Below the pieces are notes generated by a model that worked only from the letters and a program-made list of their open reading frames with translations, did no database searches and was not told the DNA's origin. Of a stretch of 64,000 bases of DNA, positions 1,263 through 23,490 are shown piece after piece (within the stretch, counting starts at the first letter, position 1; each line of letters starts with the position of its first letter). The stretch covers positions 51,339-115,338 of the forward strand of contig CALQZS010000001.1 in NCBI GenBank assembly GCA_943349945.1, in the 5' to 3' direction. The stretch comes from Candidatus Nomurabacteria bacterium. GTDB taxonomy: Bacteria > Patescibacteriota > Minisyncoccia > Phycocordibacterales > SBAW01. Both the position numbers and the translations under genes were made by a program.

Positions 1263-1658
1263 ATGTCTCCTCAGTTCGAAAAAATAAAACAATTGGTACT
1301 TGGCAAAAAATACGACCTTTCGGTCGCTTTTTTGTCTCCCACAGAGATGCGTAAGGTAGACAAAAAGTACCCCCATCCTATCAACCCCGACGTTTCAGTC
1401 GGGGTCCCGACCAAAGCGTCGGGAAACAAGGCCAGCAACGTGCTGGCCTTCCCGCTTTCTGACACTTCAGGAGAAATTTTGCTCTGCAGAGATACTGCAG
1501 AAAAACAAGCGCCGCTGTATCACATGAGCAAGCGTACATTTGTCACGTATCTTTTTATCCACGGACTTTTGCACTTACGAGGGTTCGATCACAGTGTTAC
1601 AATGGAAGACGAAGAACGTCGAATTATGAAGAAATTCGGCCTTCGTACCCATGAGTAA
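1263..1658 (+). CDS. ybeY: rRNA maturation endoribonuclease YbeY
   Basis: Carries the zinc motif HGLLHLRGFDH in a 131-aa protein. Confidence 0.85.
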   Translation: MSPQFEKIKQLVLGKKYDLSVAFLSPTEMRKVDKKYPHPINPDVSVGVPTKASGNKASNVLAFPLSDTSGEILLCRDTAEKQAPLYHMSKRTFVTYLFIHGLLHLRGFDHSVTMEDEERRIMKKFGLRTHE

Positions 1659-5188: not shown

Positions 5189-5476
5189 CTATTTTCTTTT
5201 CTTGCGGACTTTTTTGGTCGGCACCCCTTCTTCGGGCCATCCGCCATAGTAATTCCACCCCAAAGCCACAGCAAGGCGAAACAGCGTGTATGCATGGGGC
5301 TTTCTGGTAATCCCCTGAGCAAAGTTGCTCACTGTCGCCGGACTCAAGCGCGCACTGTGCGCCACATGACCCCAGTTGACTCCGCGCTGACCATAAGCCC
5401 TGAACAGACGTCCACGCAGGTCGTCTACCCATTCTTCAAAATCAGATTCGTACGGCACGGGCATCTTCCGGGTCAT
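5189..5476 (-). CDS. helix-turn-helix DNA-binding protein, hypothetical
   Basis: Predicted start at MTRKMPV with a GGAG-like RBS. HTH-like segment LSPATVSNFAQG and a basic C-terminal tail (KKVRKKRK). Confidence 0.45.
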   Translation of the reverse strand: MTRKMPVPYESDFEEWVDDLRGRLFRAYGQRGVNWGHVAHSARLSPATVSNFAQGITRKPHAYTLFRLAVALGWNYYGGWPEEGVPTKKVRKKRK

Positions 5477-5751
5477 AGTAGCCCACTCCCCCCTGGAGCA
5501 AAGGCCCATACAACAGCCTCCGGTCCTTGCCGTCCTTTGCCCATACAGTAGACGATGACATCGTCCACAGTAGGGACAGTAGTCTCCCTTTCTTCCAGGA
5601 ATTCGGTCCCCTCGGGGTTCATCTTCCTACCATTTGCAGTATGGAAGAAGAGCCCACGGTGAAAGAGTCTGACCCCAAGGAAACCGAACCCTCCTCCGCT
5701 TCTGTTGGGGTAGAAGCGCACTACTCGCGCGCGTCCTATGGTTGTGTCCAT
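5473..5751 (-). CDS. hypothetical small protein (92 aa) upstream of the HTH gene
   Basis: Internal Met of ORF 5473..5928. The upstream part of that ORF lies in AT-rich promoter DNA. Its stop abuts the start of the HTH gene. Confidence 0.3.
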   Translation of the reverse strand: MDTTIGRARVVRFYPNRSGGGFGFLGVRLFHRGLFFHTANGRKMNPEGTEFLEERETTVPTVDDVIVYCMGKGRQGPEAVVWAFAPGGSGLL

Positions 5752-15172: not shown

Positions 15173-15499
15173 TTAGTGTTTTTCTTCTTTAATCCTTTTT
15201 GCGAGTTTGTCCATTTGTTTTGGAAATTCTGTTTCAAGGTCAATACCAAGCGCATCTGCTACTCGAATAGTTGACCACAAACAGTCACAAACTTCATGCC
15301 GGAGCTTTTCGTCAAGATCTTCAGCGGGAGCGCGCACACCCGACTTCATCAGAACTAACCGCGCAAGCGTGCCTAAATCTTCCATAAACCCTTGCATGTA
15401 ATGCTGCAGCTCCCATTTAGAGTGACCTTGTTCTTTATTAAGCTGATCGTATAAGAAACTAATTTCCCGAGCTTTTTTTGCAAGTTCTTGAAATTCCAT
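15173..15499 (-). CDS. MazG-like nucleotide pyrophosphohydrolase domain protein
   Basis: MazG-type helical fold motifs (EDLGTLARLVL, CDCLWSTIRVADALGIDLE). The start is 5 nt downstream of the tRNA-Phe CCA. Confidence 0.7.
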   Translation of the reverse strand: MEFQELAKKAREISFLYDQLNKEQGHSKWELQHYMQGFMEDLGTLARLVLMKSGVRAPAEDLDEKLRHEVCDCLWSTIRVADALGIDLETEFPKQMDKLAKRIKEEKH

Positions 15500-15504
15500 A
15501 CTTT

Positions 15505-15580
15505 TGGTGCTCGGGGCCGGGCTCGAACCGGCGACCCCTTCCTCTTCAGGGAAATGCTCTACCAACTGAGCTACCCGAGC
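15505..15580 (-). tRNA. tRNA-Phe (anticodon GAA), CCA encoded
   Basis: GCTCGGGTAGCTCAGTTGGTAGAGC...CTGAAGA...GGTTCGAGCCC...CCCGAGCACCA. Confidence 0.9.
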
Positions 15581-15652
15581 GTTTTTGAACCTATATTACT
15601 AAAGTCCCGACGTTTTGTCGGGAGGCCGACCAATGCGTCGGCCCTACCCGAG
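15581..15652. repeat. ~60-nt twin-hairpin element (tcccgac-N5-gtcggga, ggccgac-N6-gtcggcc) followed by a 10-nt duplicate of the tRNA-Phe 5' end (ctacccgagc)
   Basis: The duplicate at 15643-15652 is identical to 15571-15580. A homologous module sits upstream of tRNA-Gly. Confidence 0.6.
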
Positions 15653-15698
15653 CATCTAACTGCTCCATCCTACCAAAAATAGGCAGAATAACAATATT

Positions 15699-16463: not shown

Positions 16464-16537
16464 TGGTGCGAGTGGGGAGAATCGAACTCCCGCCCAGTGC
16501 TTGGGAAGCACTTATTCTACCACTAAACTACACTCGC
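16464..16537 (-). tRNA. tRNA-Gly (anticodon CCC), CCA encoded
   Basis: GCGAGTGTAGTTTAGTGGTAGAA...TTCCCAA...AGTTCGATTCTCC...CACTCGCACCA. Confidence 0.9.
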
Positions 16538-16605
16538 AATGTTCTACCACTAAATCCCGACGCGAGGAGGTCGGGACCCCGACTAATCGTCGGGGCTACA
16601 CTCGC
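16538..16605. repeat. ~58-nt twin-hairpin element (tcccgac-N8-gtcggga, ccccgac-N5-gtcgggg) followed by a 10-nt duplicate of the tRNA-Gly 5' end (ctacactcgc)
   Basis: The duplicate at 16596-16605 is identical to 16528-16537. Same module as at tRNA-Phe. Confidence 0.6.
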
Positions 16606-23096: not shown

Positions 23097-23490
23097 CCCC
23101 GCTTTTGGCGGGGCGTCTACAATATCTAGCGCGCGCGTCTGTAAGCCGAGTTCTGTCTCCGCCGGTTGGCGGAAGCAACAATTTATCTAGCTCGGGCGTT
23201 ACCGCCCGAGTCAAGCGGCACTCCCACACAAGGTGGGCACGGCCTTGCACTTGGACAAGGATTTAGCTCCGACACCCCGAAGGGGTCGGAGTCCCGGTTT
23301 ATTACGTCGGGACCGTTTCACTCCCACTGAAGGGACTCGTCTCTGTTCGCACCTCTGGTGCCCGCTAGCAGCACCCGATGGGGATTACCCACTGCCTGTC
23401 TGCACTCCACATTTCTGTAGAGGCAAGTGCTCGGACTTTCCTCTCTGACTATTCGTCAGAGCTGTTACTCGACGCGCTCTCTATATTGTA
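23097..23490 (-). ncRNA. rnpB: RNase P RNA (bacterial type)
   Basis: On the minus strand: P4 region GAGGAAAGTCCGAGCAC, GGGAGTGAAACGG, ACAGAACTCGGCTTACAG, and P1 pairing between the 23471-23490 and 23120-23140 regions. A hairpin follows at 23095-23116. Ends are approximate. Confidence 0.75.

Follow-up and report, generated by a model that had tools for sequence, protein, structure and literature searches.

Two tRNA genes in a 64,000-nt stretch of a Candidatus Nomurabacteria genome (contig CALQZS010000001.1; hereafter the window, to which all coordinates refer), those encoding tRNA-Phe and tRNA-Gly, are each preceded by an inserted block in which two adjacent hairpins, here called the twin-hairpin module, are flanked by pieces of the 5′ end of that same tRNA. 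With a probability of roughly 0.7, these blocks are members lacking an open reading frame (ORF), most likely decayed remnants, of a compact mobile cassette of Patescibacteria that settles in the 5′ parts of tRNA genes and that encodes, in its full-length form, a small GIY-YIG nuclease. The evidence that carries this reading consists of an architecture that recurs at no fewer than 13 tRNA species, an insertion polymorphism at the window locus, conserved catalytic residues in the nuclease, and ORF-less deletion derivatives of the long form.

Insertions upstream of tRNA-Phe and tRNA-Gly

The tRNA genes of the window were located with ARAGORN and scored with Rfam, and the sequence around them was inspected directly (Table 1). 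An initial annotation of this DNA had described twin hairpins directly upstream of tRNA-Phe, and these are evident by direct reading, both with 7-bp stems. On the forward strand they read tcccgac-gtttt-gtcggga (15605–15623) and ggccgac-caatgc-gtcggcc (15624–15643); in tRNA sense, GGCCGAC-gcattg-GTCGGCC (hairpin 1) comes before TCCCGAC-aaaac-GTCGGGA (hairpin 2). The repeat of the first ten nucleotides of the tRNA reported in the same annotation is likewise exact, with ctacccgagc of the upstream copy identical to 15571–15580 (tRNA-Phe nt 1–10); its end had been placed at 15652, one base short, and the sequence between the two 10-mers is 63 nt rather than ~62 nt. The order in tRNA sense is ...GTTAGAT GCTCGGGTAG, the twin hairpins, CTTTAGTAATATAGGTTCAAAAAC, and finally GCTCGGGTAG-CTCAGTTGG..., which is the tRNA-Phe body. 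It is the upstream 10-mer that touches the native upstream flank, and this flank is collinear with that of relatives in which the site is empty. By position, the filler between the module and the tRNA occupies the slot that is held in full-length cassettes by a D-arm remnant, a leader, and the GIY-YIG ORF. The leader of tRNA-Phe is predicted to fold into two adjacent hairpins (minimum free energy −30 kcal/mol, z = −3.8). Compared with its relatives, tRNA-Phe of the window differs at pair 4:69; the difference is present in both copies of the 10-mer, which are identical to each other.

The initial annotation had also noted a homologous insert at tRNA-Gly with a 10-nt repeat of its own. The insert and the 10-mer are indeed there, but the upstream copy comprises nt 1–23 of the tRNA, interrupted after G10 by the hairpins, and its second 13 nt had been missed. 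In tRNA sense, GCGAGTGTAG is followed by the module (CCCCGAC-gatta-GTCGGGG, then TCCCGAC-ctcctcgc-GTCGGGA), by TTTAGTGGTAGAA and catt, and by the tRNA itself. This leader is also predicted to form two adjacent hairpins (minimum free energy −28.9 kcal/mol, z = −2.5).

Table 1. Positions of the tRNA genes and of the inserted elements in the window (nt, nucleotide position within the tRNA)
Feature	Position	Strand	Basis or remark
Intact tRNA-Phe (GAA), CCA encoded	15505–15580	−	ARAGORN; Rfam 68.6 bits
24-nt filler CTTTAGTAATATAGGTTCAAAAAC separating the module from tRNA-Phe +1	15581–15604	−	Direct reading; analogy of position with full-length cassettes
Twin-hairpin module at tRNA-Phe	15605–15643	−	Match to family consensus; hairpin 2 (TC/GA) on the tRNA-like side
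Upstream copy (X1) of tRNA-Phe nt 1–10, GCTCGGGTAG	15644–15653	−	Exact 10-mer repeat
Intact tRNA-Gly (CCC)	16464–16537	−	ARAGORN; Rfam 69.3 bits
Copy of tRNA-Gly nt 11–23 (TTTAGTGGTAGAA) and 4-nt spacer CATT	16538–16554	−	13-mer match to the tRNA
Twin-hairpin module at tRNA-Gly	16555–16595	−	Direct reading; fold
Upstream copy of tRNA-Gly nt 1–10, GCGAGTGTAG	16596–16605	−	Repeat match; collinearity with relatives
Third module copy, solo, with no tRNA and no repeat	1385–1424	+	In frame within ybeY-like ORF 1263–1658

Among the eight tRNA genes of the window, only these two carry the module, and they are also the only ones with a repeat of at least 10 nt of their own sequence within the 200 nt upstream. 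The stem motif CCGAC-N3-12-GTCGG occurs seven times in the window against an expectation of 0.34, a count reached in none of 100 shuffles. An Rfam scan of the window recognised tRNAs and RNase P only, with no match for the module and none to an intron model, and no integrase is found among the ORFs neighbouring the blocks.

A candidate promoter (TTGTTA-16 nt-TAGGAT) lies in a conserved block upstream of the stranded 10-mer at tRNA-Phe; it falls below the threshold of the promoter scanner, which detected no consensus sigma-70 promoter inside or beside the insert. Given its position, the insert is probably transcribed, as a structured 5′ leader of ~80 nt that RNase P would then remove. The effect at the level of the window is modest, amounting to two tRNAs with an extra structured leader of ~70 nt.

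Two observations concern the annotation of these genes. In a mechanical ORF list, tRNA-Phe is fused into a 130-aa ORF (15173–15565, minus strand), while the real start of the mazG-like gene is an ATG at ~15499, 4 nt past the CCA of the tRNA, so that tRNA-Phe and the mazG-like gene nearly abut. The 3′ CCA is encoded in three of the eight window tRNAs (7171–63484), namely Phe, Gly, and Val, of which two carry the module, numbers that are too few to interpret.

Empty sites in related genomes

Syntenic relatives were found through homologues of the neighbouring mazG-like protein (L-numbers denote the loci or contigs retrieved). The search for tRNA-Phe loci without the insert, which the initial annotation had proposed as a check, was successful in L210, L207/L208, and L213. 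In L210, whose mazG-like protein is 87% identical, tRNA-Phe is uninterrupted, and the upstream block of the window joins the tRNA directly (...AATATTGTTAATTTGGCTACTTTTGGTAAGATGGGTATGTT followed immediately by GCTTGGGTAGCTCAG...). Both tRNA-Phe and tRNA-Gly are uninterrupted in L213 and in L207/L208, where the neighbouring protein is 80% identical and the gene neighbourhood is that of the window (LepA, glutaredoxin, tRNA-Arg, HSP20, PrsW, and valyl-tRNA synthetase). When one repeat and the insert are subtracted from the window sequence, it aligns collinearly with L207 at both the Phe and the Gly loci. The empty orthologous loci, together with this collinearity, identify the blocks at tRNA-Phe and tRNA-Gly as real, recent insertions.

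A different 84-aa GIY-YIG ORF (MQWYVYITSAASGYYYVG...) is located at 2117–2500 in L207/L208, 3′ of tRNA-Phe and before the mazG-like gene, and no such insert is present in the window. Across lineages, tRNA-Phe is thus bordered by two kinds of GIY-YIG element.

The twin-hairpin module family

A genome scan for the double hairpin, restricted to one genome per species, yielded at least 120 loci. Among the matches listed (80), the sources are mostly lineages of Patescibacteria (Saccharibacteria, Paceibacterota, Nomura-, Adler-, Taylor-, Wolfe-, Kerfeld-, Yanofsky-, and Berkelbacteria), and the remaining ones are high-GC, chance-like matches and a few Bacteroidota. Outside Patescibacteria, twin hairpins resembling TGCCGAC...GTCGGCA TCCCGAC...GTCGGGA, with complementary outer pairs, were seen in L026 (Chitinophaga), L059 (a Bacteroidetes metagenome-assembled genome), and L078 (Terrimonas). 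In the consensus of the module, which is ~40 nt long and dyad-symmetric, [NN]CCGAC-loop-GTCGG[NN] precedes TCCCGAC-loop-GTCGGGA. The search placed no constraint on the outer two stem pairs; these vary in identity (CC/GG, GG/CC, TC/GA, AG/CT, and others) and are complementary in 66–70 of 70 distinct modules, compared with 15–38 of 70 in cross-paired controls. With three copies in the 64-kb window and hundreds of loci elsewhere, the module has the form of a dispersed dyad of two hairpins, as terminal-inverted-repeat elements do.

About 20% of the copies in the genome sample closely precede a tRNA and have pieces of its 5′ part as flanks, and at 12 or more genome loci the module splits tRNA 5′ fragments upstream of an intact tRNA, the split point lying after nt 10, 12, or 15/16. 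The blocks at tRNA-Phe and tRNA-Gly of the window agree with this family in the module itself, in its orientation (the TC/GA hairpin facing the tRNA), in the point of insertion (after G10), and in the flanking fragments. The left flank of oriented copies is T in 14/28, A in 21/28, and G or A in 27/28, a preference that is partly due to the U8-A9-G10 of the tRNAs. Direct repeats of at least 10 nt flank 14% of the copies and 1.9% of the controls (for example L007, L031, L051, and L070). The canonical module is absent from the IMG/VR viral contigs, and a phage vector was accordingly rejected; a relation to TIGR-Tas arrays, considered on account of their occurrence in these bacteria, was also rejected, since the modules are dispersed singletons and do not form arrays.

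The third copy in the window adds ~14 residues (PDVSVGVPTKASG) to a ybeY-like endoribonuclease, directly before the conserved (T/S)(D/N)VL(S/A)FP motif, and this in-frame insertion recalls the Rickettsia palindromic elements.

A GIY-YIG nuclease cassette in the 5′ parts of tRNA genes

A metagenome scan with the pattern TAG, module, CTCAG returned 90 instances at 86 loci, and in 77 of the 90 an intact tRNA follows on the same strand within 400 nt. These 77 tRNAs represent 13 anticodon species of Thr, Val, Ile, Phe, Asn, Met, and Lys. The length of the filler between the module and the tRNA is bimodal (50 at ≤50 nt and 21 at 251–320 nt), and the fillers of 251–320 nt encode a GIY-YIG nuclease of ~86 aa. 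The ORFs from L126 and L135 match Pfam PF01541 with E-values of 5.3e-14 and 3.9e-11, the same family is precomputed for 40 of 41 homologues, and Y5, Y15, G17, R25, and E61, which correspond to the GIY Tyr, the Tyr-x-Gly, the Arg, and the Glu, are invariant in 29 sequences.

Among the ORFs, 27 have the module 6–38 nt ahead of their ATG and the tRNA directly behind them, and in 17 of these 27 the stop codon is the T8-A9-G10 of the tRNA itself. The bias of a search that starts from the module was removed by fetching four homologues through their protein sequence alone, and all four show the same order of tRNA nt 1–10, module, D-arm remnant, ORF, and intact tRNA. The D-arm remnant depends on the type of tRNA, being CTCAAT at tRNA-Asn and TTAAACGGATA at tRNA-Arg. 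The tRNAs downstream of the cassettes were called by ARAGORN, and the host gene remains intact beside its duplicated end. In L214, two units whose modules differ are arranged in tandem. A GIY-YIG ORF of another subfamily (92 aa) occupies the equivalent place at a tRNA-Ser (L066, 5640–5810), where the module in the same position is a CCGCC/GGCGG hairpin; a different module accompanying a different nuclease subfamily argues for co-evolving partners. At tRNA-Lys, L130 and L200 contain tandem fragments of tRNA-Lys nt 1–17 followed by a 'tccgccaaaggcgga...' hairpin, which is another type of insert in copies of a tRNA 5′ end.

Short forms and the displaced 5′ end

The relation between long and short units can be followed at individual loci. 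In L197, a full and a short unit are arranged in tandem with identical modules and with the first 20 nt after the module identical, and L126, with the ORF, and L141, without it, are orthologous loci. Judged by these sequences, the short ORF-less forms are deletion derivatives of the long ones in at least one locus.

The upstream 10-mer is that of the resident tRNA in 50 of the 77 loci and differs from it in 27. Where it is identical, the repeat reaches 2–8 nt, often 2–4 nt, upstream of +1 in 18 of the 50 loci, and the idea of a retro-copy, suggested by a repeat that starts at the mature +1 and by the encoded CCA, was abandoned on this ground. The two units of L159/L177, which lie 430 nt apart on one contig and have nearly identical modules, share the upstream 10-mer GCCGAAGTAG, while their resident tRNAs begin with GCCGTTGTAG (Thr-GGT) and GCCGCCTTAG (Thr-CGT), neither of which equals the shared 10-mer; the stranded fragment can thus move, or be converted, together with the module. 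The 27 differing 10-mers and the foreign 10-mer of L159/L177 fit a transfer with flanks, in a comparison that is uncontrolled.

These features bear on the initial annotation, in which the repeat was a target-site duplication. The insertion itself stands, as the empty sites confirm, and so does the locus-specific nature of the repeat, but a classical duplication of fixed length does not: the repeat is 10 nt at Phe and nt 1–23 at Gly, with the module inside it, a filler of variable length precedes the second copy, and only 50 of the 77 10-mers are identical. The earlier reading as an insertion footprint is right in spirit and wrong in mechanism. By comparison of the sequences, the two 10-mers are better described as the displaced old 5′ end of the tRNA and its regenerated 5′ end.

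The reading of the block as an intron or intervening sequence of a working tRNA was also rejected, as in-silico excision with a boundary jitter of ±2 nt restored no tRNA in L001–L120 or in the window. L156, which is outside that set, contains at ~5343–5520 a GIY-YIG ORF and an intact tRNA-Val(CAC), followed by a near-full-length tRNA-Val(CAC)-like pseudogene with a module between nt 10 and 11; this pseudogene may capture a disrupted copy at a stage that precedes deletion of its 3′ part.

Proposed mechanism and alternative explanations

In the full-length arrangement, the native promoter and leader are followed by tRNA nt 1–10, ending in T8-A9-G10, and then by the twin hairpin, a few further D-arm nucleotides, the ~86-aa GIY-YIG ORF, and the complete tRNA. 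The cassette sits after G10, and behind it comes a fresh nt 1–10, which often supplies the TAG stop of the nuclease. We infer the role of the hairpins and the mechanism of mobility from sequence, as follows. As the cassette brings this new 5′ end with it, the tRNA would be rebuilt, and the old 5′ end would be left upstream as the 10-mer repeat. The tRNA promoter would drive transcription of the whole block as a long 5′ leader, from which RNase P would free the tRNA. The nuclease is proposed to break an empty tRNA gene near the D-arm, and the repair to copy the cassette from a filled allele, with the tRNA sequence on both sides serving as homology for break repair (homing with co-conversion). 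The hairpin module would be the cis element of the cassette, able to persist or to spread alone.

Several results weigh against this reading. In the genome sample, about 80% of the module copies stand alone, outside tRNA loci, and one lies in frame in ybeY; with only ~20% at tRNAs, the module leads a separate existence for which homing gives no account. The nuclease, of 86 aa, consists of the bare catalytic domain, in which the Pfam domain covers residues 1–70 and is followed by a basic tail of ~15 aa. It has no separate DNA-binding domain, an unusual trait in a site-specific homing enzyme, and its sole NCBIfam match is N-terminal and below threshold. A tie between ORF lineage and tRNA type was considered and rejected, as the signal is weak (identity of 0.60 against 0.565); the flanking fragments are tRNA-type specific despite this weak link, and the cassette would have to re-tailor itself upon a switch of tRNA. 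In the window, no ORF of at least 55 aa matches GIY-YIG, and the fillers of 17–24 nt bear no above-chance likeness to full cassettes in a shuffle test. For the tRNA-Phe filler, the score is 11 against a shuffle mean of 10.7, with 100 of 200 shuffles equal or better, and an apparent match by eye between CTTTAGTAATAT and CTCAGTAATATGGC, proposed as an ORF remnant in the filler, failed the same kind of test. The descent of the window blocks from an ORF-bearing copy is therefore drawn from the family only, and the window copies may have arrived already ORF-less.

The most serious competing explanation is that the twin hairpin is an element akin to miniature inverted-repeat transposable elements (MITEs) or repetitive extragenic palindromic (REP) sequences, with a transposition chemistry of its own, that inserts 3′ of TAG- or TAA-like sites including the tRNA U8-A9-G10. 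The window copies would then have arrived ORF-less, and the GIY-YIG gene would be a frequent neighbour or passenger. The predominance of solo copies (including the in-frame ybeY copy), the T-A-[G/A] left flank of most oriented copies, the excess of direct repeats over controls, and the lack of an ORF remnant in the window all agree with such an element. It is harder to reconcile with the fixed place of the module relative to the ORF and the tRNA in every ORF-bearing unit, including the four fetched by protein alone, with the module and leader shared by full and short pairs, with the different module that accompanies the L066 nuclease subfamily in the same position, and with a repeat of variable length that at tRNA-Gly contains the module. 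We consider it unlikely, and it overlaps largely with the homing cassette, in which the module would be a non-autonomous partner. The solo copies, the T-A-[G/A] flank, the direct-repeat excess, the foreign 10-mers, the weak link of the ORFs to tRNA type beside type-specific flanking fragments, and the lack of a DNA-binding domain are the reasons why a transposon-like mode that recognises the hairpin and mobilises short units in trans is kept as the main rival.

A broader and distinctly tentative proposal joins these elements. The twin hairpin and the 86-aa catalytic-only nuclease could form an unrecognised two-part mobile system, in which the nuclease would read a hairpin or cruciform together with a TAG-type flank, and not a long stretch of DNA. 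The universally conserved U8-A9-G10 and D-arm of tRNA genes would be a safe harbour that provides a promoter and a stop codon, and ORF-less units would be mobilised in trans across Patescibacteria genomes, among other places in frame into proteins and possibly into the short uncharacterised insertions described in rRNA genes of this group. If so, recognition of a hairpin plus a short motif would represent a new way for a very small enzyme to find its target.

It is very improbable that the module and repeat serve the tRNA as a conserved leader or promoter element (for example, as a processing or regulatory structure with a decoy 5′ strand competing for the acceptor stem), kept by selection on tRNA expression, and are not mobile DNA. 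The block does lie between the conserved TTGTTA-16-TAGGAT block and tRNA +1, a position in which transcription is probable, and compensatory changes preserve the hairpins. However, the initial annotation had itself pointed to the case of a leader or promoter general to all tRNAs, and this is contradicted by the six of eight window tRNAs without the module and by the locus-specific repeat; moreover, three relatives lack the block at their orthologous Phe and Gly loci, so that it is not conserved there, the module also occurs within a protein-coding gene, and it has neither an Rfam match nor a consensus promoter in or beside it.

The attachment-site scar of a lost tyrosine- or serine-recombinase element (a prophage or island) in a tRNA gene is less credible still: although partial tRNA duplications do arise from integrative elements, the repeat here is at the 5′ end rather than on the usual 3′ side and is only 10–23 nt long, the insert is 63–68 nt with no integrase among the neighbouring ORFs, the gene that accompanies the module across many tRNA species encodes a GIY-YIG protein and not an integrase, the canonical module is not found in the viral contigs, and more than 200 related loci contain no integrase-bearing island.

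Other features of the window

An RNase P RNA is encoded at 23126–23480 on the minus strand (106 bits against a gathering threshold of 100). A CCGAC-like hairpin pair within it (~23269–23320) was considered as a fourth copy of the module and rejected, as it aligns to the native P13/P14.

Comparison with known systems

A close parallel is provided by the mobile ORFs (mORFs) of fungal mitochondria (Allomyces atp6; Glomus atp6, atp9, cox2, and nad3), which duplicate and replace the terminus of a gene (PMC3630166). In both cases an endonuclease ORF, of the GIY-YIG type in atp9, enters an essential gene along with a second copy of that gene's end, the gene stays functional while its native end is displaced as a remnant, the ORF may be in phase with the host gene, and the insertion is polymorphic between close relatives. 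The cassette likewise has a duplicated host-gene end flanking an endonuclease ORF beside an intact gene. It is, however, a mirror image, in that the 5′ end is duplicated and not the 3′ end; its host is a bacterial tRNA gene, its duplicate is only 10–24 nt, its nuclease is a bare catalytic domain of 86 aa, and its twin-hairpin module, which splits the displaced fragment, has no equivalent in mORFs.

Free-standing homing endonucleases offer a second parallel. The GIY-YIG enzyme SegB of phage T4 recognises the conserved TΨC motif of tRNAs (PMC2330249). Like the cassette gene, which lies outside introns and is present in L126 and absent from L141 at an otherwise conserved locus, segB is a GIY-YIG gene outside introns among tRNA genes, in the tRNA cluster of T4-like phages, with a target that includes a conserved tRNA motif, and it spreads by break repair with co-conversion of flanks, as is proposed for the cassette. 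SegB differs in being much larger, with a DNA-binding region, and its site is the TΨC arm, whereas the cassette inserts in the D-arm after G10; neither a split 5′ fragment nor a hairpin module accompanies it. The closest solved relatives of the cassette ORF are UPF0213/YhbQ-type proteins (PDB 1zg2, BH0048, and 1ywl, EF2693; E = 4.5e-9), which belong to the same class of ~90–100 aa with the catalytic domain only. The literature searched contains no tie between UPF0213 proteins and tRNA genes or hairpin modules, and the cassette would provide a candidate function for these enigmatic minimal GIY-YIG proteins.

The module resembles the REP/REPIN-RAYT system and the IS200/IS605-derived PATEs in being a short dyad-symmetric hairpin dispersed in the genome, and it may share with them a preferred short flank, which in E. 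coli REPs is a 5′ GTAG. Its occasional in-frame insertion into proteins is shared with the Rickettsia palindromic elements. In contrast to REP/RAYT and PATEs, the partner in the cassette is a GIY-YIG nuclease and not a Y1/HUH transposase, the ORF-bearing copies are found exclusively at tRNA 5′ ends, and the module core is common to many Patescibacteria lineages, whereas theirs is lineage-specific.

Group I introns in Patescibacteria tRNA genes are self-splicing and occupy anticodon-loop positions (PMC13011429). They are selfish insertions in tRNA genes of the same phylum, but the block described here is outside the mature tRNA, removal of the module restored no tRNA in L001–L120 or the window, and no intron model matches; the cassette is not mentioned in that survey. 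A study of rRNA genes of the candidate phyla radiation reported insertions that are not introns and encode GIY-YIG proteins, as well as many short ones that are unexplained (PMC11270868); these may be related. In the literature searched, whose coverage is incomplete so that novelty is provisional, neither a GIY-YIG cassette in the 5′ part of a tRNA nor the hairpin module is described.

In the tiny genomes of Patescibacteria, tRNA genes are single-copy. For a selfish cassette, to settle within the 5′ end of such genes without killing them would be an elegant and apparently unreported solution, and a natural case of a nuclease gene that would be expressed from a pre-tRNA leader with its stop codon inside the tRNA. 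The cassette accounts for the hairpin repeats and isolated pieces of tRNA 5′ ends that disturb the annotation of Patescibacteria genomes. The window feature itself is a small relic. The classical definitions of a target-site duplication, a MITE, an intron, and an integrase scar all fail to describe the cassette. By analogy, it appears to work most like an mORF-type or free-standing homing endonuclease cassette, and it represents a variant of endonuclease-driven mobile DNA that is widespread and apparently not yet described.

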